From contig DGTB01000085.1 of the NCBI GenBank assembly GCA_002394185.1, positions 1 to 45,730 on the forward strand: 45,730 bases of DNA. Reading direction: 5' to 3'. A model generated the notes under the pieces. That model searched no databases and had not been told where the DNA came from. It worked only from the letters and a program-made list of their open reading frames with translations. Shown one piece after another: positions 18,968 to 45,552 of this stretch. The first letter of the stretch is position 1; each line of letters opens with the position of its first letter. The DNA comes from Bacteroidales bacterium UBA4347 (GTDB lineage: Bacteria > Bacteroidota > Bacteroidia > Bacteroidales > P3). Both the position numbers and the translations under genes were made by a program.

Positions 18968-19046
18968 TTTGTTTAGTTTGTTTTTTAGCGCACTATGTGC
19001 TTTTTGTTATTATTTTTATTTATTTTTTTTCTTTAAATTAAGTTTG

Positions 19047-19054
19047 CAAAAGTA
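19047..19054 (-). promoter_or_regulatory. -7 box TActTTTG for the ppiD-like gene
   Basis: Reverse complement of caaaagta is TACTTTTG, in an AT-rich spacer about 80 nt upstream of the start at 18967. Confidence 0.4.
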
Positions 19055-19205
19055 CAAAGAATTATTTTTTTAGAAAAATTTTTTTTACTCCACACAATGG
19101 TTCAATTTTATAAAATACATAAAATCAGTAACGAAGAGAATGAATTTTTCTTCATCTGCAATGGATCTCCTACTGGCAAAAACAATCTACAGAACCCTCT
19201 GGCGT

Positions 19206-19676
19206 TCAAAAATCGAACGAAAAGGGCAACAGACTCGCCACACTTGGAAACACTCTCACGTATCCGTTCTTCAGGTAGCACAACACACGCAACGGATGCT
19301 TCTGACGTTGCTCGTATTCCATCAATACCTGACGGCAGGCGCCACAAGGCGATGCCTCACATAATTCTCCCTTTTCGTTCCTGCCCACAATAGCCAAAGT
19401 CTCATACACTTGCACATCTGGACGTTGAGCCGAAGCGGCAAAAACAGCCGTCCTCTCGGCGCAAAGACCAGACGGGTAGGCTGCATTCTCCTGATTGTTG
19501 CCACACACCACTGTGCCGTCAGCCAGCCGGAGTGCCGCCCCTACATGGAAGTGCGAATAGGGAGCGTATGCCCCGTCGGCAGCCTCGACGGCCTTCTGCA
19601 TCAACTCGCGGTCAGCTGCATCCGGCAAATTCGACAATTCAAACTCTTGATAATTGATAACCAATTCTTTATCCAT
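19206..19676 (-). CDS. cdd: Cytidine deaminase
   Basis: Zinc motifs CAERTA and PCGACRQVLMEY. Start chosen at MDKELV (19676); the track starts at 19721. Confidence 0.85.
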   Translation of the reverse strand: MDKELVINYQEFELSNLPDAADRELMQKAVEAADGAYAPYSHFHVGAALRLADGTVVCGNNQENAAYPSGLCAERTAVFAASAQRPDVQVYETLAIVGRNEKGELCEASPCGACRQVLMEYEQRQKHPLRVLCYLKNGYVRVFPSVASLLPFSFDF

Positions 19677-19761
19677 ATATTTCAAATTTTTTCTCATTGC
19701 AAAATTAATCAAAAAAAACAATCAAAGAAACCATTTTTTTAACTATCACATAATCAGCACT

Positions 19762-19843
19762 ATCTCCTTATCATCTCCTTACCAACTCCCACCCAACTCC
19801 TACCCAACTCCTACCATTGTAGGAGATGGTTGGTCGATGGTAA
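19762..19843 (-). repeat. Dispersed element, copy 2 (inverted relative to copy 1)
   Basis: 11-mers ccttaccaact cccacccaact cctacccaact, then the hairpin CTCCTAC catt GTAGGAG (19808..19825). Lies in the divergent cdd / Y-family polymerase spacer. Confidence 0.85.
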
Positions 19844-19933
19844 AGCCGTCGAAGGGTGAAAAAGTCATATACGTAGCACACAATATTCTGTCGAAAAATA
19901 CGTTTCTCGATAGCCAGTGTTTTACAACCACCC

Positions 19934-21430
19934 ATGCAGGCCAACCGCACATATATTGCCATCGACCTCAAGTCGTTCTACGCCTCGGTAGAGTGCGTGG
20001 AGCGGGGCCTCGACCCATTGACTACCAATCTGGTGGTGGCCGACGCCAGCCGAACGGAGAAAACCATCTGCCTGGCAGTAACGCCGTCGCTCAAGGCCTA
20101 TGGTATCGGCGGTCGTGCGCGGTTGTTCGAGGTAGTGCAGCGCGTGCGGCAGGTCAACGCCCAGCGGCGGCGCAATGCCCCTGGCTATCAGCTGCAGGGC
20201 GAGGCCACCGACAGTCGTGACCTGGCTGCGCACCCCGAAAAGGCCCTGGGCTATCTGGTGGCGCCGCCTCGCATGGCCTACTATATTGATTATAGCGCCC
20301 GTATCTACAGCATATACCTGAAATACATAGCCCCGGAGGACATCCATGTCTACTCGGTCGACGAGGTGTTCATGGACGTCACCAACTACCTGGGAACATA
20401 CAAGATAACGTCCCATGAACTGGCTCGTCGCATGATTGCTCATGTGCTGCGTGAAACCGGCATCACGGCTACCGCCGGCATCGGCACCAACCTCTACCTT
20501 TGCAAGGTAGCTATGGACATCGTTGCCAAGCATATACCCGCCGACAAAGACGGCGTGCGCATCGCCGAGCTGGACGAAATGAGCTACCGCCGTCTGCTGT
20601 GGAGCCACCGGCCGCTGACGGACTTCTGGCGTGTCGGTCACGGCATTGCGCACAAGCTTGAGGCATGCGGTATGCACACCATGGGCGACGTAGCCAGACA
20701 ATCTATTGATAACGAATCACTACTGTACAAACTCTTCGGTGTCAACGCCGAGCTTCTCATCGACCATGCCTGGGGTTGGGAGCCGTGCACCATGAAGGCC
20801 ATCAAAAGCTACCGTCCGCGCAGCAACTCCTTCAGTTCCGGCCAGGTGCTCTCCGAACCCTATACCTTCAAAAAAGCGCGCGTAGTAATGCGCGAAATGG
20901 CCGACGCCATGGCCCTCAAACTGGTGAGCCTCCGACTGGTGACCAACCAGATTGGCATCTACGTCAACTATGACGCAGAAAGCTTGAAACAAGGTACTTA
21001 CACCGGTGATATTGTGGACGACTACTATGGTCGCAACGTACCCAAACCAGCTCACGCCGGTGCCAACCTCCCCCACCCCACTTCCTCAGCGCGTATCCTC
21101 ACCGAGGTTGTAGTGCAACTCTTTGACCAGTGTGTCAATCCAAAGCTCCTTGTCCGTCGGCTTACCATCACTGTCAATCAAGTGATTGATGAAAACGACA
21201 GCAGTGTCACCCACCCGGTGACGCAACTCGACATGTTCACCGACTATGAACAATTGGAACGCGAGCAGAAGGCCGTGAAGTCCGCCCTCGACAAGGAGCG
21301 GCGCATGCAAGAGGCCGTGCTCAATATCAAGCGCAAGTTCAACAAGAACGCCATTTTCAAAGGCATGGACCTCGAGGAGGGGGCCACCGCCCGCGAGCGC
21401 AACAGCCAGATAGGAGGGCACAAGGCGTAG
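19934..21430 (+). CDS. Y-family DNA polymerase (UvrX/ImpB-like translesion polymerase)
   Basis: YIAIDLKSFYASVECVERGLDP...SVDEVFMDVT motifs; 498 aa. Confidence 0.8.
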   Translation: MQANRTYIAIDLKSFYASVECVERGLDPLTTNLVVADASRTEKTICLAVTPSLKAYGIGGRARLFEVVQRVRQVNAQRRRNAPGYQLQGEATDSRDLAAHPEKALGYLVAPPRMAYYIDYSARIYSIYLKYIAPEDIHVYSVDEVFMDVTNYLGTYKITSHELARRMIAHVLRETGITATAGIGTNLYLCKVAMDIVAKHIPADKDGVRIAELDEMSYRRLLWSHRPLTDFWRVGHGIAHKLEACGMHTMGDVARQSIDNESLLYKLFGVNAELLIDHAWGWEPCTMKAIKSYRPRSNSFSSGQVLSEPYTFKKARVVMREMADAMALKLVSLRLVTNQIGIYVNYDAESLKQGTYTGDIVDDYYGRNVPKPAHAGANLPHPTSSARILTEVVVQLFDQCVNPKLLVRRLTITVNQVIDENDSSVTHPVTQLDMFTDYEQLEREQKAVKSALDKERRMQEAVLNIKRKFNKNAIFKGMDLEEGATARERNSQIGGHKA

Positions 21431-32271: not shown

Positions 32272-32470
32272 CATAAAAAAAGAGAATTCCAACACAAACA
32301 TATAAAAAATAATCATTCATCACTAATTGCCACCAACTTACCATTAACTCACCCAAAGATATTGATACTTTTTTCAAAAAAAACAAGTGTTAAAAAATCA
32401 TAAAAACACACCTCTCATGTCACCTTTGGGCATTTTGGTGGTTATTATATATATAGAGAAGCTGACCAAA

Positions 32471-32974
32471 ATGGACATAAAACGGGATCCTAAATATGAA
32501 CTGTTCGACGGCTTGCTCACGCGGCACAGGGGACTGATACGCACCCTCTGTTGGCGGCATTCGTCCTACAGCGACACCACCTGCCGCGAGCTGGTGCAGG
32601 ACTGCTATGTCGCCATTTGGTTCCACCTCTCCTCCCTGCGCGAGAACAGCAACATCTGGCAGCAAATGACATGGGTTGCGTGGCAATGCCAGAGCGTCTT
32701 CTCGCACCGCCTCCGGCACCGGTTCCACGACTGGCTGCCAATCGACGACCACCTGGCCGACACACTGGCCGACAGCGACGGGCTCAGCCAACGGGAACTG
32801 ATAGAGGAACTCGCCACAGACCTCAATCCAAGAGAGCGTAGCCTGCTCACCCTTTTCCTCGAAGGCTACCACCAGAACGAAATCGCCGAGAAACTGGAGA
32901 CGACACCGGCCGCAGTCAAAAAAATGAAACAACGCATCATATCGAAAATGGCAAACAACACAAGAACAACATGA
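32471..32974 (+). CDS. Sigma-70 family (ECF-like) RNA polymerase sigma factor
   Basis: Region 2-like ELVQDCYVAIWFHL and region 4 HTH LNPRERSLLTLFLEGYHQNEIAEKLETTPAAVKKMKQRIISKM. Confidence 0.75.
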   Translation: MDIKRDPKYELFDGLLTRHRGLIRTLCWRHSSYSDTTCRELVQDCYVAIWFHLSSLRENSNIWQQMTWVAWQCQSVFSHRLRHRFHDWLPIDDHLADTLADSDGLSQRELIEELATDLNPRERSLLTLFLEGYHQNEIAEKLETTPAAVKKMKQRIISKMANNTRTT

Positions 32975-33282
32975 AGACAGAACAGGAAATAGAAGAAATC
33001 ATCAACGCCGAGGCAGCACGCAACCGCCAGTTCCTTGACCAAATCCGTAACTTGGCCTTGGAACATAATGCCGACCTCGAGGAATGGTGTGCCCGGCGCC
33101 GGCGCCACAATGCCTTTGTCCGCACCGCCGTGGCCGCATGCCTCCTCGCCCTCTTCACCTTCGTCGCCGGCACCGCCTATGCTGCGGCACCCGCTCCCGA
33201 CTTCACAGCAGGAACCTCCCATGGCGACATCCTCCCCGCACAGGCCTTCGACACCGTAACCAGAATCCTCTGCCTGATATAA
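32971..33282 (+). CDS. Putative single-pass anti-sigma factor
   Basis: 103 aa, ATGA-coupled to the sigma gene, with one TM segment (AVAACLLALFTFVAGTAYAAA). Assigned by position and topology only. Confidence 0.45.
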   Translation: MKTEQEIEEIINAEAARNRQFLDQIRNLALEHNADLEEWCARRRRHNAFVRTAVAACLLALFTFVAGTAYAAAPAPDFTAGTSHGDILPAQAFDTVTRILCLI

Positions 33283-33317
33283 GACAATAACGACAACGAT
33301 GACAACCAAAACAACAG
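33283..33317. repeat. 9-nt periodic GACAAnnAn tract
   Basis: gacaataac gacaacgat gacaaccaa aacaacag, starting directly after the 33282 stop. Confidence 0.6.
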
Positions 33318-33396
33318 CTGCCGCACCCCTACTTCTTTCAAGCATACCCATTGTCCCCGATGTCTCTGTTGTCGTAGAAAAAGGAAGAGCCGAAAA

Positions 33397-33909
33397 ATGA
33401 ATACAAAAAAGAATATACGACGGTTTTGGTTGTGGGTAGGCATACTCTTGCTCGTCGACCTCGCGGTCATTACCCTTTGGAAGCGCTGGTACTGGTTCTT
33501 CCCCTCGCGCGAGGTCAGCGAAGTCTACACCCGCTATGCCGGCAACGAGGACTTCAACGTCGTCTTCCTCAAGGACTTCAAAATCAACGACACCGTCTTT
33601 GTCGACGTCACCCTCCTGGAAGCCAAAAACGACTCCTCCTGGGTCCGTATTAAAGACGATTTCAACATTACACCCATCCCCGACGAAATACTGTCTGTGG
33701 CCACAAATGATATCGTCAGTTTCTGGTATGCTCCCAAGAAAGACTACTCCCTCCCTATGGATTCATGTCTAACCAACAATGATATTATAGCAATCTCATA
33801 CCTGAAGAGAGAGATTGCTGTTTTCCACATTGAATCAGAAAAACAAATCAGACGCATTCTTGAATATCAAATATCAAATAACAAAAACCAAACAAATGGA
33901 AATGAATAA
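33397..33909 (+). CDS. Membrane-anchored hypothetical protein
   Basis: 170 aa with an N-terminal TM segment (FWLWVGILLLVDLAVITLW). Lower GC than the core genes. Confidence 0.6.
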   Translation: MNTKKNIRRFWLWVGILLLVDLAVITLWKRWYWFFPSREVSEVYTRYAGNEDFNVVFLKDFKINDTVFVDVTLLEAKNDSSWVRIKDDFNITPIPDEILSVATNDIVSFWYAPKKDYSLPMDSCLTNNDIIAISYLKREIAVFHIESEKQIRRILEYQISNNKNQTNGNE

Positions 33910-34318
33910 AAAAGTAATGAAAGCCGCACTCTTTGTAGTGTTGAGTTCGATGGCTGTCGGATGCCAAAAAGAGGATCTGCCGACCAACATCACCGAGATA
34001 ACAGGTGTTGCCAATCCCTCATGTACACTGGTTTACTCTATCAATGGCGTTGTGTTTACATCTACTTATGCAACCGAAGAAGAGTGCCATGCATTCATGC
34101 TGCACCTGATGGAGCTCTCTCGTGAAGGAAATGAGATAGTGGTATCGGCAAATGGTTATGGCTCAAATGTACTCGGAACTAAAGAAACCGTCACTTACAC
34201 TACACCGAGCAGCGACGATGCTGCGGCATGGTCGGAAAAAATGGTCAAAGATGGATACCGGGTTTACGTAACCTACGATTCCGTTAAAAAAGTCCATATT
34301 TGTGTTGCAGTAAAATAA
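33896..34318 (+). CDS. Small lipoprotein, unknown function
   Basis: Lipobox LSSMAVGC. Starts at 33896, 33902 or 33917 are all possible. Confidence 0.6.
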   Translation: MEMNKKVMKAALFVVLSSMAVGCQKEDLPTNITEITGVANPSCTLVYSINGVVFTSTYATEEECHAFMLHLMELSREGNEIVVSANGYGSNVLGTKETVTYTTPSSDDAAAWSEKMVKDGYRVYVTYDSVKKVHICVAVK

Positions 34319-36704: not shown

Positions 36705-37361
36705 ATGAAACAACATCTATTTACGATGGCGCTGGTAGTCGGAGGCATGGCGATAGCCATGTTCTCCGCTTGCCAACGTTCAAACAATAAGAATTCGGAA
36801 TTGGAAGCATCACCTTCCATAGTCCAAATTGATACAGAGGAAATACAACCTGAATGTCTGGGAAATACAGCAGACTTACACCGTGCAGATGCGAAGATAC
36901 ATGTCAGACGGGGCCAGATGCTCGCATTGCAGACAGTGGGCTTGACTCTTACCGCCATCGACGCTGCTGTGCAGCACGAAGCCGTCTATTCGGTTACGTC
37001 ACTTGCAACAGAAGAACTACCACCGCTACCACAAGGAATGATAAATATGACCGCTGCCACAGGAGGTTACCGCCTATTACCCGGAGGAGAACACTTCTCA
37101 CCGTATGCAGAGCTCCGCATCGCCTACGACCCCAAGCGTTTGCCCCAAGGCTATACGCCCGACGACATCTACACCTCCTTCTATGACACCTCAAGCCTGG
37201 CATGGGTACGCTTGGAACGAGTGGAAGTGGTCAGTCCGATGGATGGACTGACGATGATTCAACCACCTACGACTACGACAACCTCGGCCGACTCGTCCGG
37301 CGCATCCATCCCGATGCCGGCACGACAACGTTCACGTATGACCCCGCAGGCAACCTCATGA
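36705..37361 (+). pseudogene. Rhs N-terminal lipoprotein leader fragment, out of frame with the repeat shell
   Basis: Lipobox AMFSAC. YRLLPGGEHFSPYAELRIAYDPKRLPQGYTPDDIYTSFYDTSSLAWVRLERV resembles N-termini of long Bacteroidales Rhs/SpvB-type proteins. The frame then runs into a T/S/P-rich tail while the YD repeats continue in another frame. Confidence 0.55.
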
Positions 37362-39868
37362 AAGAAACCAACCCCTTGGGAGAAATTTTTTACAGCTACA
37401 CATACTACAGACCCAAGAAGAAACGTTATTCCTACATGACAGGCAACGACGTGACCTACGAATACGGCACCAGCGGCAACGACATCGGCCGCCCCGTCCG
37501 CATCACCGACGGCAGCGGCAGCTACGAATGCCACTATGACAAACTCGGCAATGTCACTGACGAGACACGCACCATCGCCCTGCCACAGCACGGCGAGGTG
37601 TACCAGTTCAGAATGCTTTACCAGTATGACAGCTGGGGTCGTATGCTCTCGATGACCTACCCCGACGGCGAGGAGATAACCTACACCTATCAGTGGGGCG
37701 GTGACCTCCTCTCCATGCACGGCAACAAAAACGGCAACGACCGCACCTACATCAGGGAGATACAATACAACTCTTTCGGACAGAAAGAAAACGTGAACTA
37801 TGGTAATGGCACCAGTGCTCACTATACTTACGACGCGCTGCATCGCCTCGTCAATCTCCAAAGCACTGATAGCCTAGGCAACTTAATGCAAAACATTGAC
37901 TATACTTTTGACAATGCAAGCAATGTTACGGGCATTGTCAACAATGCCGGTGTTGTGAACATGCTTGGAGGTGTATACGAAAATACCTATAAATACGATG
38001 CGCTGCACAGACTTGAAGAGTCGTATGGTGGAGGTGCCATAGGAAACTACAACACCTATCTTAATTATTCACCATCGGGCAGACTGATAGGGAAATTCCG
38101 CGACAACAACTCAGTCACACTGTCGGCCTCAGTCGATATGGCCTACGGCTACTGCAACGACTATCAGCCTCACGCCGTGAAGCGTATGTTCGACTACAAG
38201 AACGGAATGCTTTACGACATGCGCTGGGATGAAGCAGGCAACCTCGGTCAGGTGAGCATGGCCAGGCCGGGCGAAATGTTTGAGGCAGGACGTTTCCTCT
38301 TCTGGACCGAGGACAACCGTATGCACGCTGCCGTGGACGACAAACACTATAGCTACTATGCATACGATTACGGCGGGGAGCGCCGGTTGAAACTGGTGGG
38401 AGTCAACAGCTCAGTGGATGTCAATGCCGAATACATGACTGCTATCTCTACATTGAACGAGCCGACGCTCTATCCCTCTGCCTACATGGTGCTGACCAAC
38501 AAGGGCTACACCAAGCACTACTATGCCGGTACCGAGCGCGTGGCCGCACGTCTCGGCGGTGGCGGACTGGATGCCCTGTATCCTGTTATCGGTAACGAAG
38601 AAGAACTCCAGAAAAAAGCTGATATATTGTTTAAACAAAGCATCGAACAGGTGAACAGCCGTGTGCTTCATGAAAATGATCTCGACTGCATAATGAACAA
38701 TGAATTCACTAAGGAGGAGTTTGGCCACCCAATTGAAGGCATCCCCTACCAGATGAAGGCAGACGTTAAGTGTGACCACAGCCAGCTCAATGAAATGGTC
38801 AACTCAATGTTGACCGATTATCATAACGGAAAGGAGGATGAAGTGTACTTCTACCATTCCGACCACCTCGGCAGTGCCAGTTGGATAACTGACTTCGGCG
38901 GTGAGGCGGTACAGCATATCCAGTACCTGCCCTACGGCGAGCCGTATGTTAATCAGCATCCCGCCGGATACCAGGAACGTTTCACGTTCACCGGGAAAGA
39001 GAAGGACGAGGAAACCGGCTACGGCTATTTCGGTGCCAGGTACATGGACCACGAGCTGATGACCATGTGGCTCAGCGTCGACCCGATGGCCGACAAGTAC
39101 CCGAGTATTTCGCCGTATGCTTATTGTGCCTGGAACCCAGTGAAGCTGGTGGATCCGGATGGATGTGAAGTGGGAGACTATTATGATAGAAATGGGCGAT
39201 GGTTAGGTACGGACGGAAAAACTGACCACGTAGCATATGTTGCAAAATCAGTGACAAAAAATTCAAAAGGACTTGTAGTATCCGCTGATGGTGTACAAAA
39301 GTTGTCCATCACAAACGAAGAGCTACTTGACAGGGCAACATGGGTATGTGGGGAAAGTGGAGGAAGCGGGGAATACATTTCCGATAGAACTCAGAATGCT
39401 GGCGATGCAGCGTCCGTCGCAGATGCTCGTGTGGTGGATTATTATGCTTATGCAATTAATAATGCATCGACGACTGATGGCGGATTCTATAAAGCTGCTA
39501 AAAACAGGATGGGGAAAATAATAAATGGGGTTTATACCAAAACATATGATGGGTATTTCGAAGGACGGGGGTTGGGGGGCAACACAAATAGTAAGGCGTT
39601 CTCTAACGCCCGAAATTCCGATATGAGGGAAATCAATCAAAACTGCTGTTTTACCAACTCCATTTCTGCTGTTATCAAATCTGTGACAGATTCGAACGAC
39701 CCAACAGGTGGTTGTCGTGCGTGGCTCGGCGGTGACGATGCAAATACGTATGTAAGGAACGGCTCGGTGTCTGTCAAGCGAGAAGGTAGAATTACGACAA
39801 ATCAATTTAGCTTCAATTCCAATAACGGAAGAAGCCACCATAGTTTTTACATATTATCAGTAAAATGA
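37202..39868 (+). CDS. Rhs/YD-repeat protein with RHS core and a variable C-terminal toxin tail
   Basis: Many YD repeats (YDYDNLGRL, YTYDALHRL, YKYDALHRL). Core YFYHSDHLGSASWITD...LPYGEPY...FTGKEKDEETGYGYFGARYMD...DPMADKY...NPVKLVDPDG ends at 39163, followed by an AT-rich 234-aa tail. Confidence 0.9.
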   Translation: MGTLGTSGSGQSDGWTDDDSTTYDYDNLGRLVRRIHPDAGTTTFTYDPAGNLMKETNPLGEIFYSYTYYRPKKKRYSYMTGNDVTYEYGTSGNDIGRPVRITDGSGSYECHYDKLGNVTDETRTIALPQHGEVYQFRMLYQYDSWGRMLSMTYPDGEEITYTYQWGGDLLSMHGNKNGNDRTYIREIQYNSFGQKENVNYGNGTSAHYTYDALHRLVNLQSTDSLGNLMQNIDYTFDNASNVTGIVNNAGVVNMLGGVYENTYKYDALHRLEESYGGGAIGNYNTYLNYSPSGRLIGKFRDNNSVTLSASVDMAYGYCNDYQPHAVKRMFDYKNGMLYDMRWDEAGNLGQVSMARPGEMFEAGRFLFWTEDNRMHAAVDDKHYSYYAYDYGGERRLKLVGVNSSVDVNAEYMTAISTLNEPTLYPSAYMVLTNKGYTKHYYAGTERVAARLGGGGLDALYPVIGNEEELQKKADILFKQSIEQVNSRVLHENDLDCIMNNEFTKEEFGHPIEGIPYQMKADVKCDHSQLNEMVNSMLTDYHNGKEDEVYFYHSDHLGSASWITDFGGEAVQHIQYLPYGEPYVNQHPAGYQERFTFTGKEKDEETGYGYFGARYMDHELMTMWLSVDPMADKYPSISPYAYCAWNPVKLVDPDGCEVGDYYDRNGRWLGTDGKTDHVAYVAKSVTKNSKGLVVSADGVQKLSITNEELLDRATWVCGESGGSGEYISDRTQNAGDAASVADARVVDYYAYAINNASTTDGGFYKAAKNRMGKIINGVYTKTYDGYFEGRGLGGNTNSKAFSNARNSDMREINQNCCFTNSISAVIKSVTDSNDPTGGCRAWLGGDDANTYVRNGSVSVKREGRITTNQFSFNSNNGRSHHSFYILSVK
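38987..39163 (+). repeat. Rhs core-end homology block, copy A (177 nt)
   Basis: Encodes FTGKEKDEETGYGYFGARYMDHELMTMWLSVDPMADKYPSISPYAYCAWNPVKLVDPDG. Recurs at 40587 and 41965. Confidence 0.9.
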
Positions 39869-39881
39869 AATATCCCGCAAA

Positions 39882-40445
39882 ATGAAATACCTTGCAGTAT
39901 TACTAGTTCTTATGTTATTTACACAAGAATCTATTTCACAGACTCGTCTAAAAGATTTACCTTTCTCTAAAGAACTAAAAATTGTTCATGATGATAGTGT
40001 GAGTCGCACGATTTGTATTGATGACAAATCCAATACCTATTGGGTGGATTCCATTTATCCTTTGTTCTATGAATATGAATACCCTGAAAAGGGGGTAATT
40101 ACCCAGCGTAGTTTTTTGGTGTCTGGAACTAATAAATATCTGCTTGACTCTTTAATAATTAAAAACTATAATGACTATTGCCTTTCTTTGGATATAGCTA
40201 GGGTTAATATATTTAAACAAAAGGGGTCAGAATACTTGTTTATTGAGTGCTATAATATATTTCAATATGGAAGTGACTCCCAGCCTATATTTATATTATT
40301 AACAAAAGAAGGAAACAATTTTGCACATCCATCAGTCTATTTAATGGACATCTACTCTGAAAATGCATATGAGAATATCTATATTCTATATGAAAACGAC
40401 AAAATCGTAATGAAAGGAGAAGGTGTATCATTAATCTCGTTCTAA
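39882..40445 (+). CDS. Putative immunity protein for the resident Rhs tail (exported)
   Basis: 187 aa, AT-rich, signal peptide MKYLAVLLVLMLFTQESISQ, 14 nt downstream of the Rhs stop. Assigned by position. Confidence 0.6.
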   Translation: MKYLAVLLVLMLFTQESISQTRLKDLPFSKELKIVHDDSVSRTICIDDKSNTYWVDSIYPLFYEYEYPEKGVITQRSFLVSGTNKYLLDSLIIKNYNDYCLSLDIARVNIFKQKGSEYLFIECYNIFQYGSDSQPIFILLTKEGNNFAHPSVYLMDIYSENAYENIYILYENDKIVMKGEGVSLISF

Positions 40446-40565
40446 TAATGGCAACAACCAAAATGGCAAACAATTGTCTTTGCATAGGGTATTCTAACTA
40501 TCAGAATATTATAAACAATGCTCCATTCGGCACAAAAAACCAACACAAAAAACTGCACGCAAACC

Positions 40566-41369
40566 ATGCGGTTTCAACCTCCATCTTTCACCGGGAAAGA
40601 ACGCGACGAGGAAACGGGCTACGGCTACTTCGGAGCCCGCTATATGGACCATGAGCTGATGACGATGTGGCTCTCCGTCGACCCGATGGCCGACAAATAT
40701 CCCTCTATTAGTCCCTATGCCTATTGTGCATGGAATCCTGTCAAGCTGGTTGATCCGGATGGAAGAGATTGGGTTGTAATCTTTGACCATGAGAAAAAAA
40801 CGGTTACGGTCAATGCAAAATATGTAACCAAAGGTGATGAAGCATATGCGTCGGCGGAGAAAGCTATTAAGGCATGGAATAATTTATCGGGAAAATATAG
40901 CTTGATGGTTGGAGACGAAAAATATAGCGTTAATTTCAAGTTGTCTGTAATTGATAACTCAGAAGCAGTTCTCGGCGACCCAGAACTGAACGTCTACAAA
41001 TTAGTATCCGAACTAAGAAACAAAGACGGAGAGGTTGATGAAAATATTATGGGAGAAACAAACCGCAGAATAATAAACGTTCTTGAGTCAGAGAAAGACA
41101 ACTATGTAACTTCGTCACATGAAATAGGCCATAGTTTAGGTCTAGAGCATTTCATAAATGGGACGAAAGGTCTAATGGAAGAAGATGGTGGAAGATTAAG
41201 TTGCTGTCATGAAATAACCAAGTCCAATGTAGATAATATCTTGCATCTTGCTTTGCATCCTGAAGATCGCAATCCAAAAACCAAAAGTGGCGTAGGGTCA
41301 TATAAGGTAATTGGGAGCAGCAAAGTGGATATAAAAAATCGGTTTAATTTAAGATTACTCAAAAACTAA
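40566..41369 (+). CDS. Orphan Rhs C-terminal cassette with a metzincin-like zinc-protease tail
   Basis: Starts MRFQPPSFTGKERDEETG... with the core end to DPDG (40763). The tail contains HEIGHSLGLEH (HExxHxxGxxH). An earlier ATG at 40518 is possible. Confidence 0.75.
   Translation: MRFQPPSFTGKERDEETGYGYFGARYMDHELMTMWLSVDPMADKYPSISPYAYCAWNPVKLVDPDGRDWVVIFDHEKKTVTVNAKYVTKGDEAYASAEKAIKAWNNLSGKYSLMVGDEKYSVNFKLSVIDNSEAVLGDPELNVYKLVSELRNKDGEVDENIMGETNRRIINVLESEKDNYVTSSHEIGHSLGLEHFINGTKGLMEEDGGRLSCCHEITKSNVDNILHLALHPEDRNPKTKSGVGSYKVIGSSKVDIKNRFNLRLLKN
40587..40763 (+). repeat. Rhs core-end homology block, copy B
   Basis: By hand count, 30 mismatches in 177 nt versus copy A, nearly all synonymous (one K-to-R change). 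Confidence 0.9.
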
Positions 41370-41375
41370 AAAGTC

Positions 41376-41855
41376 ATGAAAACACATCTATGGTTAGTAA
41401 TTTTGCTAGTTTTTTTCTCATCCTGTGGGGTTAGCAAAACTTCCTCTAACATTGTTGATTATGATCGTCTTTTGTTTTCAAATGGAGAATACTCAACAGT
41501 TTTGGGTACATACATTTTGCATGACACAATTACTACTGACACAATGGAAAACGAACATTGTATACTTCTTGGTAATATTTTTGCAAGAAATCCATTACAG
41601 GAAATATATGGTGCGGAAAAATCCGAGAAATTCAGTCTATTTGATAATTGTTTAGAGTGGCCACACTTATTCATTCCTTCCCTAAACTTAGACATACAAA
41701 TGGTAGATGGTTCTTATCGTGTGGATATTCCTAGCGGATTATATGATGTTATTATTTTTGCCAGAGATTATGATCCAATTCACATTAGATGGAACTTTAT
41801 CAGTCACCATATTTATTCGATTGACTTTTATTTGGGCTGCACAGTCATTCACTGA
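41376..41855 (+). CDS. Putative immunity lipoprotein for the metzincin-like tail
   Basis: 159 aa, lipobox VFFSSC, 6 nt after the orphan stop. Confidence 0.6.
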   Translation: MKTHLWLVILLVFFSSCGVSKTSSNIVDYDRLLFSNGEYSTVLGTYILHDTITTDTMENEHCILLGNIFARNPLQEIYGAEKSEKFSLFDNCLEWPHLFIPSLNLDIQMVDGSYRVDIPSGLYDVIIFARDYDPIHIRWNFISHHIYSIDFYLGCTVIH

Positions 41856-41943
41856 TTATAACCTCTCCTAACAGAGAATACAAAGTTCACAAATAGTTGA
41901 ACACAGGAACTCATAAAATAGAATGGGTAAATCGATTAAAACC

Positions 41944-42204
41944 ATGCGTTTTCATCCCTTCGTTTTCACCGGCAAAGAGAAGGATGAGGAAACGGGCTAC
42001 GGCTACTTCGGAGCCCGCTATATGGACCACGAGCTGACGACCATGTGGTTGAGCGTTGACCCGATGGCAGACAAGTACCCATCTATTAGTCCCTATGCGT
42101 ATTGTGCGTGGAATCCTGTGAAGTTGGTTGACCCGGATGGACGTAAAATACATTTATATAATGATCTAACTGTAGAAAAAGTAAAAAAATACATGAGAGA
42201 ATAG
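41944..42204 (+). pseudogene. Vestigial orphan Rhs cassette (core end plus a 20-aa tail)
   Basis: MRFHPFVFTGKEKDEETG...DPDG, then only RKIHLYNDLTVEKVKKYMRE and a stop. Multiple stops follow in all frames. Confidence 0.7.
41965..42141 (+). repeat. Rhs core-end homology block, copy C
   Basis: By hand count, 23 mismatches in 177 nt versus copy B, with one M-to-T change. Confidence 0.9.
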
Positions 42205-42299
42205 AAACCTGCTAGGCAATGTGACTAGAGAAAGTGCGGGTATAGAAAAAGTGAAATATCAAAATATTGCTCAACGAATATTAAATAGAACAGAAAGAA

Positions 42300-42783
42300 A
42301 TGGAAACGACCACCAATATTAAAGCGCTTTTGATAATCTGCATGCTATTTGCAAGTGGATATGGTCATGGGCAAAACAGCGTTTCATTCGAATAATTGGG
42401 ATTTTGTATTTAAAAAAGGAGACTCGTATTGTTATAAAATGATAGACTATACAAAGAACTCTGACTCCAACGTTGATTCAATTAGAGTTTTATATTATTT
42501 TGATGGAGACAGTGTTGTGAGAGTAGACAATTATCAGTCTCGCACAACTTATTTGTACCACAATACAGCGAACTCCCAGTATGGTAATAATTGTACGATA
42601 ATTGAATGGAAAGATGGAGAATGTAATTATAAATTTAGTCTAGGGCATGAGAGAATAGAAAAGAGAATGATCTTTGCATTTATCGGAATGCATCCTACTG
42701 ACAATATGAAAGTTGAAGATGACTACAACAATTGCATTAAATCTTGTGTACAACACAAGGAGATGATAATATTCCATCAATAG
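42300..42783 (+). pseudogene. Frameshifted putative immunity gene of the vestigial cassette
   Basis: The ATG at 42300 encodes a signal peptide (METTTNIKALLIICMLFASGYGHGQ) that hits TAA at 42393. The body (…NNWDFVFKKGDSYCY… to 42783) is open in another frame from 42349. Confidence 0.55.
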
Positions 42784-42970
42784 ACAAAGAAAAAAGAGAC
42801 AAAAAAACGCATTAAACTGGGGCGGAGAACTGGCACCAGTCACAACGGAAAAGAATAGATAAAACAAGGCTATTCCGTTATTGTTTAAAAATACAAAGGC
42901 GAACAGCGACTGACGAAACCAAAAATCGCAATACACTGCAATTTTATTTTGCCATTATCAAAAAAAAATG

Positions 42971-42978
42971 TATTTTTG
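42971..42978 (+). promoter_or_regulatory. -7 box TAttTTTG for the hipBST-like operon
   Basis: TATTTTTG lies 28 nt upstream of the ATG at 43006. Confidence 0.5.
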
Positions 42979-43005
42979 CATCGAAAATCGCAACATGTTG
43001 AGACT

Positions 43006-43227
43006 ATGGATCTGAAAGAAATTGGACAGGCTATCAAGTCACGACGGGCATCGCTCGGTGTGAACCAACGCACGGTGGCGGAACTCTCTGGAGTCGCCGT
43101 AAACACACTTGTCGCCATCGAACGTGGCGAAGGTAACCCACAAATAACCACCCTGATGGATATTCTCAACACCATCGGTCTCCAGGTTGAGGTGAAACCC
43201 AAAATAATGGAGTATGAGACAATGTAA
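43006..43227 (+). CDS. hipB: XRE-family HTH protein, HipB-like
   Basis: MDLKEIGQAIKSRRASLGVNQRTVAELSGVAVNTLVAIERGEGNP is a classic Cro/C1 HTH. Overlaps the next gene by 14 nt. Confidence 0.8.
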   Translation: MDLKEIGQAIKSRRASLGVNQRTVAELSGVAVNTLVAIERGEGNPQITTLMDILNTIGLQVEVKPKIMEYETM

Positions 43228-43525
43228 GGTGTATGTGAATGACTTGGAAGCCGGTTTGTTGACAGAAGAAGACAGCGGACGGTATAATTTCTCCTATTCA
43301 GTCGGTTATACCGGTAAAGCCGTCTGTCTGTCCATGCCAGTGAGGAACGAGGCATACACCTCGGACCATCTGTTTCCATTTTTTTTCAACATGCTCTCAG
43401 AGGGCGCGAACCGCAAGATACAGTCGCAGCTGTTACATATCGACGAAAATGACGACTTCGGCATCCTGCTGGCCACCGCTCAAACAGACACCATCGGAAC
43501 GGTAACAATCAAACCAGTGCAATGA
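43214..43525 (+). CDS. hipS: HipA N-terminal subdomain as a stand-alone protein, HipS-like
   Basis: 103 aa. VYVNDLEAGLL...LSMPV...FPFFFNMLSEG...DTIGTVTIKP parallels the HipA N-terminal domain (VG.L...LSLSLP...FF.NLLP...D.VGA.T). Confidence 0.75.
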   Translation: MRQCKVYVNDLEAGLLTEEDSGRYNFSYSVGYTGKAVCLSMPVRNEAYTSDHLFPFFFNMLSEGANRKIQSQLLHIDENDDFGILLATAQTDTIGTVTIKPVQ

Positions 43526-44529
43526 TGGAAGAATTGAGATTTTGCCCTTCGACACTGAAAGAAGGTTTTAATACATATTCTCCCGAGGCCTGCCGCAGTC
43601 TGTTCGGCGGGAAGCAAGTGTCGCATATACTGAATTTTGACAGCCCTAACAACGCCAATGCCGACTCGACCGACTATGCAACCCATATTGGACGCATCTC
43701 GCTTTCCGGTGTTCAGCCCAAGGGGGCGCTTGTGTTGCGAAACAGAGTGCTGTCGAAACCAGAAAAAGGAGAACGGGGACGGTATATTTTGAAACCTGCA
43801 CCGGTATCCTATGCATTGCTGGAGCGCAAGTATTGTCCCGCCAACGAACACCTTACCATGCAGATGGCTTCACAAGCCTACGGCATAGAGACCGCCCGCA
43901 ATGCGCTCTGCTTTTTTCGCGATGGAGAGGCCGCGTATCTCACCAAACGGTTTGATGTGGCTCCCGATGGAACAAAATATCCGCAGGAAGACTTCGCTTC
44001 TTTGGCCGGATTGACCAGGGCCAATGGAGGAAGTGACTACAAATACAACATATTGAGCTACGAAGATTGTGCCGATATCATTCGTCGCTATGTTCGTGCT
44101 GCACAGGTGGACCTGCTGCGATTCTTCCGGGTGGTGCTGTTCAACTACATCACACTGAATGATGATGCCCACCTGAAAAACTTCTCCCTCATCGACCGTG
44201 GAGATGGAGACTACCGTCTCGCTCCAGCCTACGACCTCATCAATACAAGCCTGCATCTGCACCGACCTCACATCTTCGCGTTGGAAAAGGGCCTTTTCAA
44301 AGAAGGGATGCGCATGTCCGACACCCATACCGTGGACAGGGGCGACTTCGAAGAATTCGGACATAGAATCGGTTTGCCCAACCGGACCATCAACCGTGAA
44401 CTCGACACTTTCGCAAAGGAATCTCCTCTCGCCTTGAAGTTGATAGCGCATTCATTCTTGTCGGAGAAACTGAAGAAAGACTACCGGTTGTCGTATCAGT
44501 ATCGATGCTTCACATTATCATCCCATTAA
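43522..44529 (+). CDS. hipT: HipA-family Ser/Thr kinase lacking the N-terminal subdomain, HipT-like toxin
   Basis: 335 aa with Gly-rich loop ISLSGVQPK, catalytic NDDAHLKNFSL and APAYDLINT. ATGA overlap with the hipS-like gene. Confidence 0.8.
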   Translation: MMEELRFCPSTLKEGFNTYSPEACRSLFGGKQVSHILNFDSPNNANADSTDYATHIGRISLSGVQPKGALVLRNRVLSKPEKGERGRYILKPAPVSYALLERKYCPANEHLTMQMASQAYGIETARNALCFFRDGEAAYLTKRFDVAPDGTKYPQEDFASLAGLTRANGGSDYKYNILSYEDCADIIRRYVRAAQVDLLRFFRVVLFNYITLNDDAHLKNFSLIDRGDGDYRLAPAYDLINTSLHLHRPHIFALEKGLFKEGMRMSDTHTVDRGDFEEFGHRIGLPNRTINRELDTFAKESPLALKLIAHSFLSEKLKKDYRLSYQYRCFTLSSH

Positions 44530-44924
44530 CATAATAACATTAACGAGAATCTACCTACCACAATGAAGAAATAATGGAACAGCTGGCGTACTTAAATTGG
44601 CCAATGACAATAAACTTGAAGAATTGTTTATATGATGACACATATGAAATGGACCCTAAATACTTACTGACGTGACAAAACGGGAAATATGGGTTCACAG
44701 ATTTCAGAGTAAAACGATTTTTTCATGGAATGAAGACTATAAGATTATTTATTGCGTTTTTTGTCCAACAAATGAAGATGTAGAAGAGGTTTATTTTATT
44801 CCTCAGTTTGAGTCTGTGATATAAAATTTGAAACAGTGGGAGATGGCAGGGCGTTCGTCGGGATGAAAAACGCCGATTTTACGTTTATTAGGAAAACAGG
44901 GGCGGCATTACAGGCAGAAGCCGG

Positions 44925-45509
44925 TCAGCCTGCATTCACCACGGCGGCGATGGCGGTGACGATAAGGATCAGGGCCGAAGCCACCATCCAGCGGCGGGGG
45001 CGTAGCTTGACATGCTGGCGGCCGTACATGATGCCGAGATAGGAGAGCAGGAATACCGCCACCAGCATGGGCCACAGGGCGCCGTGCAGATGAGCGGCCA
45101 ACGAAGCCACGAAACCGGCTCCCAGGCCCAGCAAAAAGCCGTTGATGCCCGCGGCCACGGTGAAGAGCAGCACCCGCAGCGTGCCGGCATTGAGGTCGAA
45201 GGAGGCGGGCTTGGTCTTGCGGCCCATATAAGGCCACAGCATCTTGGCGGCCACGAAGAGGGACATTCCCAGGAAGATAAAGGCATTGGGGCGTGCAAAA
45301 GCCTCGGGGTCGCCGGGCAACTCGAAACGGAGCATATTGCCCAGCGAGATGCCCACACAGAACAGGGCCGCCTGGACAACGGCCATAGTGAGCGAGATGA
45401 GGAGTCCCGACGACAGCGGCACAGGGGCGGCGTCGGCACAACGTTGCATCAGCAGCATGAAGCTGATTCCAAAGGCAATGGCGATTACGATGAAGGATAC
45501 TATGGACAT
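44925..45509 (-). CDS. mntP: Manganese efflux pump MntP family
   Basis: 194 aa, six hydrophobic segments and two-fold internal symmetry typical of MntP/DUF204. Confidence 0.75.
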   Translation of the reverse strand: MSIVSFIVIAIAFGISFMLLMQRCADAAPVPLSSGLLISLTMAVVQAALFCVGISLGNMLRFELPGDPEAFARPNAFIFLGMSLFVAAKMLWPYMGRKTKPASFDLNAGTLRVLLFTVAAGINGFLLGLGAGFVASLAAHLHGALWPMLVAVFLLSYLGIMYGRQHVKLRPRRWMVASALILIVTAIAAVVNAG

Positions 45510-45517
45510 TTTTGGAA

Positions 45518-45552
45518 GGGTTATGGGTTATGGGTTATAGGTTATAGGTTAA
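45518..45552 (+). repeat. C-free heptamer array GGGTTAT x3 plus AGGTTAT plus AGGTTAA
   Basis: Direct reading. Begins 9 nt upstream of the mntP start and uses the same word as 596..630, but in the opposite orientation relative to the adjacent gene. Confidence 0.9.

Follow-up and report, generated by a model that had tools for sequence, protein, structure and literature searches.

A probable Legionella-like HipBST toxin-antitoxin operon in the genome of an uncultured Bacteroidales bacterium from the rumen

Genes of the operon and their relatives of known structure

Contig DGTB01000085.1 of Bacteroidales bacterium UBA4347, analysed here over its full 45,730 nucleotides (the window), carries three co-directional neighbouring genes on its + strand in the order hipB-hipS-hipT, as read from the list of open reading frames (ORFs) and the sequence, which we take to be a candidate HipBST toxin-antitoxin module. 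HipBST was defined in E. coli O127 (PMC6581861), belongs to clade III of the Hip kinases (PMC8262856) and has had its structures solved (PMC10627512), and a second, divergent HipBST subclade has been characterised in Legionella (PMC9325769, PMC10653801). In both of these studied systems HipS is the antitoxin and HipB is a DNA-binding autoregulator (PMC10627512, PMC10653801, PMC9325769). An initial annotation, made from the letters of the window alone, had described three overlapping genes of 73, 103 and 335 aa, and the following ORFs agree with that description:

43006..43227, + strand: hipB, 73-aa XRE-type helix-turn-helix (HTH) protein with an ATG start; predicted autorepressor and scaffold of the complex
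43214..43525, + strand: hipS, 103-aa homologue of HipA N-subdomain 1; predicted antitoxin
43522..44529, + strand: hipT, 335-aa HipA-family Ser/Thr kinase core without N-subdomain 1; predicted toxin

The hipB and hipS genes overlap by 14 nt, and hipS and hipT by 4 nt (ATGA). The module start given initially, 42949, was not kept: it is the TTG of the longest possible HTH ORF (92 aa), whereas the 73-aa size stated with it is obtained from the ATG at 43006. In profile searches, the hipB product matches Pfam HTH_3 (2.3e-10), and HipS matches both Pfam Couple_hipA, the HipA N-terminal domain (1.9e-17), and NCBIfam TIGR03071 (2.1e-23). HipT matches Pfam HipA_C (6.8e-43) over residues 59-299, and the Pfam profile search returned no Couple_hipA or other N-terminal HipA domain match for it. 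The earlier description of the 103-aa protein as equivalent to the HipA N-terminal subdomain, and of the kinase as lacking that subdomain, is thus borne out. HipT core kinases lacking N-subdomain 1 are 291-346 aa long (PMC8262856).

Searches against the chains in PDB retrieved, for HipT, the Legionella HipT (7vkb/8ezr/7wcf) at 1.3e-27 and 100 bits and the O127 HipT (7ab3-5) at 1.2e-13 and 54 bits. The window protein aligns with residues 34-313 of the Legionella protein, HipT(Lp), and E. coli K-12 HipA was matched at ~7e-4 over its residues 251-337 only. For HipS, the matches are HipS(Lp) (4.1e-16, 62.6 bits) and O127 HipS (2.2e-12, 50.7 bits), with weaker matches to Haemophilus HI_0666 (2.1e-10) and to residues 6-105 of E. 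coli K-12 HipA (6e-4). HipB retrieved HipB(Lp) (8ezt, 4e-5) and Shewanella HipB (4pu3, 2.7e-5) among other small XRE regulators, and no E. coli O127 HipB was among the matches listed. The initial annotation had matched the gene order and sizes to HipBST, and this comparison holds up, in that solved HipBST chains are the best matches of both HipT and HipS and HipB(Lp) appears at the E-value just given. Judged by bit scores and E-values, the module is much closer to the Legionella HipBST than to that of E. coli O127, and the nearest characterised relatives of HipT and HipS are the two studied HipBST systems, Legionella first and O127 after it.

The three kinase motifs that the initial annotation had quoted are found at these positions:

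43696..43722, + strand: Gly-rich (P) loop ISLSGVQPK, HipT residues 59-67, placed by alignment to 7ab3/7ab4
44158..44190, + strand: catalytic motif NDDAHLKNFSL, HipT residues 213-223
44221..44247, + strand: Mg-binding motif APAYDLINT, HipT residues 234-242

In the HMMER alignment, D215 of HipT falls on the catalytic D210 and D238 on the Mg-binding D233 of O127 HipT. The S-L-S loop had been proposed as the equivalent of the O127 regulatory serines, and the same alignment supports this, with S60-L61-S62 on S57-I58-S59 and S60 and S62 thus on S57 and S59. The largest group of HipT proteins is the "S-psi-S" loop class (Baerentsen et al., PMC10627512). Among the 79 related loci described below, RISLSGVQPK is identical in 72, the S-psi-S dual-serine loop is kept in at least 75, NDDAHLKNFSL is identical in 76, and the Y-D pair of the Mg-binding motif is present in every locus covering the region.

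In HipS, E63-G64-A65 aligns with E63-G64-W65 of O127 HipS, and residue 65 is A, S or E within the clade. Trp65 of E. coli HipS is essential for neutralisation and is inserted into the Gly-rich-loop pocket of HipT (PMC10627512), whereas Legionella HipS lacks the Trp (I65/M66) and yet ejects the P-loop (PMC10653801; PMC9325769). Because position 65 is Ala, a Trp-wedge mechanism could not apply in the predicted HipS of the window. By analogy with Legionella, HipS could plausibly keep the Gly-rich loop ejected, so that ATP cannot bind.

The substitution pattern of hipB, hipS and hipT indicates strong purifying selection. The ratio of nonsynonymous to synonymous substitution rates (dN/dS), calculated by the Nei-Gojobori method against seven orthologous modules (dS being saturated for the more distant pairs), is 0.06-0.13 for hipB, 0.07-0.09 for hipS and 0.03-0.07 for hipT. 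Because of these values and the retention of the triplet in ~73 of the 79 species loci, we dismiss an origin as chance ORFs and regard hipB, hipS and hipT as real selected genes. A terminator scan found none on the + strand after hipT. A perfect sigma-70 consensus (TTGACA-18-TATAAT, 12/12) lies inside hipS at 43259-43288 (+) and was considered as an internal promoter. Orthologues from other species do not conserve it, and the housekeeping promoters of Bacteroidetes depart from the sigma-70 consensus; for these two reasons we treat it as probably due to chance and probably irrelevant in a Bacteroidetes host.

Promoter and putative HipB operators

The region upstream of hipB contains four putative control elements:

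42924..42943, + strand: distal putative HipB operator AATCGCAATACACTGCAATT, an imperfect palindrome with 2 mismatches to AATCRCAAYNNRTTGNGATT, just upstream of the -33 TTTG
42947..42950, + strand: putative Bacteroidetes-type -33 promoter element, TTTG, with the -7 box following 20 nt downstream, read from the sequence
42971..42978, + strand: putative -7 box TATTTTTG (TAnnTTTG), 28 nt before the hipB ATG
42986..43005, + strand: proximal putative HipB operator AATCGCAACATGTTGAGACT, with 1 mismatch to the consensus, abutting the hipB ATG

The 20-nt spacing between the -33 and -7 elements would fit the Bacteroides promoter consensus. The proximal operator covers the predicted transcription start and the 5' untranslated region. 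To describe the conservation of these elements, the 140 nt upstream of hipB were aligned from 73 distinct loci, and three conserved islands stand out in otherwise divergent upstream DNA, namely the distal palindrome, the TAnnTTTG box and the proximal palindrome. The palindrome consensus in this alignment is AAATC(G/A)CAAyatrTTG(n)GATT. Two palindromes are present in 67 of the 73 upstream regions, with a start-to-start spacing of 60-62 bp in 66 of those (62 bp in the window). The -7 box, which the initial annotation had picked out, has an equivalent TAnnTTTG between both palindromes in 64 of the 67 two-site regions, ending 5-7 nt before the proximal site. The proximal palindrome ends exactly at the hipB ATG in 51 of the 73 relatives.

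Where a locus has CAC/GTG half-sites in place of CGC/GCG, both of its palindromes are changed (for example in the loci designated L030 and L086), as a cognate repressor and its operators would show. A pattern search of the 45.7-kb window gave two matches only, the distal and proximal sites themselves. Legionella HipB binds 18-nt inverted repeats near the hipB start that are repeated at regular intervals (PMC10653801), and by analogy the palindrome pair probably represents HipB operators sandwiching the -33/-7 promoter.

Distribution, natural variants and genomic setting

HipT is 100% identical to a protein of two rumen metagenome-assembled Bacteroidales genomes, and the Logan/ENA contigs with HipT are also metagenomic. 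The window itself comes from an uncultured rumen Bacteroidales genome, in keeping with the Bacteroidales-like host assumed initially. A word-indexed protein search gave 7987 proteins at E<=1e-5 for HipT among the 8000 candidates scored. Identity is 75% or more for the top 120 homologues; those few with a name are called "HipA domain-containing protein [Bacteroidales bacterium]" or "serine/threonine-protein kinase HipA". A scan of GTDB species yielded the 79 related loci, at 50-100% identity and mostly from rumen Bacteroidales or Prevotellaceae; the cultured hosts among them include Prevotella dentasini JCM 15908, Xylanibacter ruminicola KHT3 and Prevotella spp. Per tblastn with the window's three proteins, the order hipB-hipS-hipT with the same overlaps or close abutment is found in ~73 of the 79 loci, and three of the others are truncated at the end of a contig. 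No locus with sequence upstream of hipT lacks hipS beside it. A B. thetaiotaomicron plasmid also carries the same triplet, with a HipT 61.7% identical to that of the window and a generic annotation from PGAP.

Several of the related loci are natural variants. In L022 (1641-3058), all that is left of hipB is a stretch of ~15 codons, with an intact promoter/operator region on one side and hipS on the other; HipS and HipT are full length, and the HipT loop reads S-L-A-G-F (S62A, V64F). L089 (2597-4160) has the order hipS-hipT-hipB, in which the HTH gene overlaps the hipT stop and the operator pair and -7 box lie directly upstream of hipS. In L087 (3001-6654), hipT is interrupted by a ~2.6-kb insertion with IS21-like IstA (535 aa) and IstB (244 aa), and in L085 (3001-3970) hipT carries a frameshift; both loci have kept hipB and hipS. 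Two complete hipBST modules stand in tandem in some rumen Bacteroidales genomes, L016 (724-3996) and also L007-L010, and the two HipTs share only 44% identity. Taken together as circumstantial evidence, this pattern of variants would fit a toxic HipT, an obligatory HipS partner and HipB as a dispensable regulator.

GC content falls along the window, from 0.57 over 1-32000 to 0.50 and then to 0.385 across 32-43 kb. The first 32,000 positions hold ordinary housekeeping genes (a Y-family polymerase, a Pfam AA_kinase protein, galactose genes and a peptidase U32), and include a GC dip to 0.43 at 19001-20000, just upstream of the Y-family (impB/mucB) polymerase gene at 19934-21430. From ~32.2 kb, the low-GC region contains a sigma-70-r4/LuxR-type regulator, small unknowns, a protein sorted by the type IX secretion system (T9SS), a lipocalin-like protein, an RHS-repeat protein and low-GC cassettes. 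The RHS-repeat protein gene lies at 37202-39868 (+; Pfam RHS_repeat, 4.5e-20) and is followed by cassettes of 35-44% GC (39882-42783), with an orphan 93-aa Rhs-core C-terminal fragment (…YGARYMD…DPDGR) at 41923-42204. This Rhs region looks like a strain-variable polymorphic toxin/immunity array.

Contigs of the same species are collinear with the window from 42200 to 45552, through hipBST, and differ upstream of 42200, where L002 has an integrase. Given this divergence and the drop in GC across 32-43 kb, the initial placement of the module at an island edge is broadly right. In another strain, represented by L002 (1-2866; compared with window 32387-34318), the left part of the low-GC region (32382-34172), which includes the sigma-70-r4/LuxR-type gene, is inverted and adjoins a tyrosine integrase gene, not the Rhs locus. 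The contigs L001-L006 of the same species have 267 bp that are missing from the window at 42394; this deletion is flanked by a 12-bp repeat (42383-42394) and shortens a 253-aa ORF of the other strains to 144 aa (window 42349-42783, +). A tRNA search of the whole window found none, and so no tRNA integration site.

A conserved gene for an MntP-like membrane protein lies downstream of hipT and is common only to the same species and one related genome, L013. Homology to the modules of other species (84-86% nucleotide identity) starts at 42918-42921, at the distal operator, and ends at 44513-44529, at the hipT stop. Because of these limits and the restricted distribution of the MntP-like neighbour, the transferable unit would be 42921-44529 (49% GC). 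Rhs-core C-terminal fragments also occur just downstream of hipT in L013 (1968-2045) and in L053 (4464-4676), which may reflect a recurrent association of hipBST with Rhs arrays or a coincidence.

Interpretation and comparison with known systems

The best explanation of the locus, to which we give a probability of roughly 0.85, is an intact, self-contained HipBST operon, encoding a toxin-antitoxin system of the Legionella-like subclade and carried by an uncultured Bacteroidales genome from the rumen. On this explanation, HipS would bind HipT beside the Gly-rich loop and fix an ejected conformation unable to bind ATP, without a Trp wedge. A HipB dimer would occupy both palindromes, which are separated by about six turns of the helix, and so cover the start of transcription and the -33 side; its binding would repress the operon and tether HipS-HipT. 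Autophosphorylation of S60/S62 probably tunes HipS binding and kinase activity, and the module, which lies where conserved core genes give way to a strain-variable Rhs toxin/immunity island, may serve as a mobile cassette for addiction or stress. Several points weigh against this explanation. The match of HipB to NCBIfam TIGR03070, couple_hipB (1.8e-14, 53.4 bits), is below the curated cut-off of 71.65. AlphaFold2 gave for HipT a mean predicted local distance difference test score (pLDDT) of 40 and a predicted template modelling score (pTM) of 0.37, too poor for a fold check, from an input alignment of 22 sequences, all at least 75% identical. The two putative operator sites of the window show more degeneracy than the consensus of the clade, and the motif count in the window is only marginally above that of shuffled sequences (4 of 100 shuffles reach it), which is why we place the weight on cross-species conservation as the real evidence for the operators. 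The kinase of L022 may be attenuated, judging from its loop, which weakens the argument that HipB is dispensable. The target in the Legionella subclade is not TrpS, and HipT(Lp), the nearest characterised relative, is not rescued by TrpS or GltX (PMC10653801); for the window HipT, too, TrpS is probably not the target. Finally, the toxicity of HipT, the identity of the antitoxin and DNA binding by HipB are, for this clade, properties that we infer by analogy.

The locus could instead follow the logic of classical HipBA, with HipB as the real antitoxin and HipS as a detached structural lid of the kinase that has no neutralising role. The resemblance of HipB to antitoxins of bipartite systems, such as the Shewanella protein (4pu3, 2.7e-5), and the lack in HipS of the Trp65 essential in E. 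coli would suit such an arrangement; however, in the two characterised HipBST systems the antitoxin is HipS, which in Legionella works without the Trp (PMC10653801), and hipS is kept wherever sequence upstream of hipT exists, whereas hipB is deleted in L022 beside full-length hipS and hipT. We regard this arrangement as quite improbable. Still less credible, in our view, is a kinase that is non-toxic and merely regulatory, or permanently switched off by autophosphorylation, in a module that is effectively inert. Loop-serine autophosphorylation does inactivate E. coli HipA (PMC10627512) and the window HipT has two loop serines, but hipB, hipS and hipT are all under strong purifying selection with invariant catalytic motifs, inactivation by insertion sequence (IS) or frameshift has hit hipT specifically in some genomes, and in Legionella toxicity is not abolished by loop phosphorylation (PMC10653801). 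We also considered that hipS and hipT might be the halves of a decayed, frameshifted full-length hipA, given that their products are collinear with HipA (residues 6-105 and 251-337). This we rule out, with practically no credence left for it: the split is kept in ~73 species-level loci with dN/dS <0.1 for each half, HipS and HipT each match separately crystallised chains end to end, and the split is ancestral to the clade.

A further alternative leaves the molecular mechanism unchanged and makes anti-phage defence (abortive infection) or protection of the Rhs island the main role of the module. HipS and HipT do have weak partial PADLOC matches (PDC-M03B/A, 6.4e-6 and 1.7e-5), the module lies at the edge of the strain-variable Rhs array, Rhs-core fragments stand beside hipT in L013 and L053 as well, and the genomic context of hipBST differs between species. 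Nevertheless, those matches cover only ~40-50 residues, far from family level, most of the related loci have no Rhs neighbour, a search of a phage collection found no close homologue (the best was a 25% fragment with 56% identity on an unannotated faecal contig), and no defence phenotype is reported for HipBST in the HipBST literature cited here; such a main role seems to us rather unlikely. A somewhat less doubtful, though still unlikely, extension of the Legionella-like HipBST explanation is that this clade of rumen and gut Bacteroidales represents a third functional flavour of HipBST, combining an E. coli-like dual-serine loop with a Trp-less HipS (Ala, Ser or Glu at residue 65), acting on a substrate other than TrpS/GltX/LysS, and serving in abortive-infection defence or Rhs-island stabilisation and not in persistence.

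Returning to the Legionella-like HipBST operon, we would like to note that the finding itself is an ordinary one, because Bacteroides, Parabacteroides and Prevotella are already among the hosts of Legionella-type HipBST recorded by Lin et al. 2023 (PMC10653801); HipBST in Bacteroidales is already catalogued, and this module is a further member. According to the same authors, homologues of the Legionella type occur widely across the Fibrobacterota-Chlorobiota-Bacteroidota superphylum (PMC10653801), and Table S6 of that paper includes Bacteroides, B. fragilis, B. thetaiotaomicron, Phocaeicola vulgatus, Parabacteroides distasonis, Prevotella ruminicola and others, whereas the E. coli HipBST subclade is essentially gammaproteobacterial. 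Membership of the window module in the Legionella type is supported at the sequence level by this listing together with the bit scores. New with the window, and modest, are the operator/promoter layout, the combination of an S-L-S loop with HipS A65, the module boundaries and the natural variants; the operator/promoter architecture is likewise a modest new addition for Bacteroidales.

The main value of this work is that it corrects the annotation. In RefSeq the homologues go only by the names "HipA domain-containing protein" and "HipA N-terminal domain-containing protein", where HipT and HipS of a tripartite toxin-antitoxin module would be the appropriate names. The conserved pair of putative operators offers a concrete DNA target for HipB in Bacteroidetes, and the hipB deletion, the hipS-hipT-hipB order, the IS-disrupted hipT and the tandem modules are ready-made comparisons for studies of the family. 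The module opens no long-standing question. This hipBST clade is very common in rumen and gut Bacteroidales, and any role it has, be it in growth arrest, in persistence or in the maintenance of plasmids or islands, would be relevant to dominant gut commensals.

Of the known systems, classical HipBA shares with the window module the kinase superfamily, a domain resembling HipS (HipA N-subdomain 1, residues 6-105), an HTH partner and palindromic operators (putative in the window). In HipBA, however, the kinase is one polypeptide of ~440 aa and HipB is the antitoxin, whereas the window has two genes with a stop/start overlap. The hipJS and hipIN systems (Gerdes et al. 2021, PMC8262856) and PDC-M03 likewise pair a short HipA-core kinase with a separate HipS-like-domain protein, but unlike in the window their kinase gene comes first, there is no HTH gene, and the HipS-like protein may carry a HIRAN domain. 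The part of the Gerdes et al. 2021 supplement available to us has no Bacteroid or Prevotella entries, which is no proof of absence from the whole. The HipA-like kinases of the "Gratiaviridae" gut phages (PMC8008677) are unrelated in context.

The E. coli O127:H6 HipBST (7ab3-7ab5) resembles the window module in its tripartite layout, the S-psi-S loop, the catalytic and Mg-binding Asp residues and HipS E63-G64. It is the more distant of the two studied systems, its essential HipS Trp65 is Ala in the window, and its TrpS target cannot be assumed for the window kinase. The Legionella HipBST (Lpg2368-2370; 7vkb, 7wcf, 8ezr, 8ezt) has the same gene order and proteins of comparable size, with PDB chains of 76 aa for HipB, 102 aa for HipS and 312-320 aa for HipT, and shares with the window a HipS without Trp65 and inverted-repeat operators (putative in the window) near the hipB start at regular spacing. 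The two nevertheless differ in detail: the HipT loop is S-L-S in the window, with a second phosphorylatable serine, and S-V-Q in Legionella; HipS has A65-N66 in place of I65-M66; and the window has two putative operators 62 bp apart around a Bacteroidetes promoter, in contrast to the three operators with 53-bp gaps found in Legionella.

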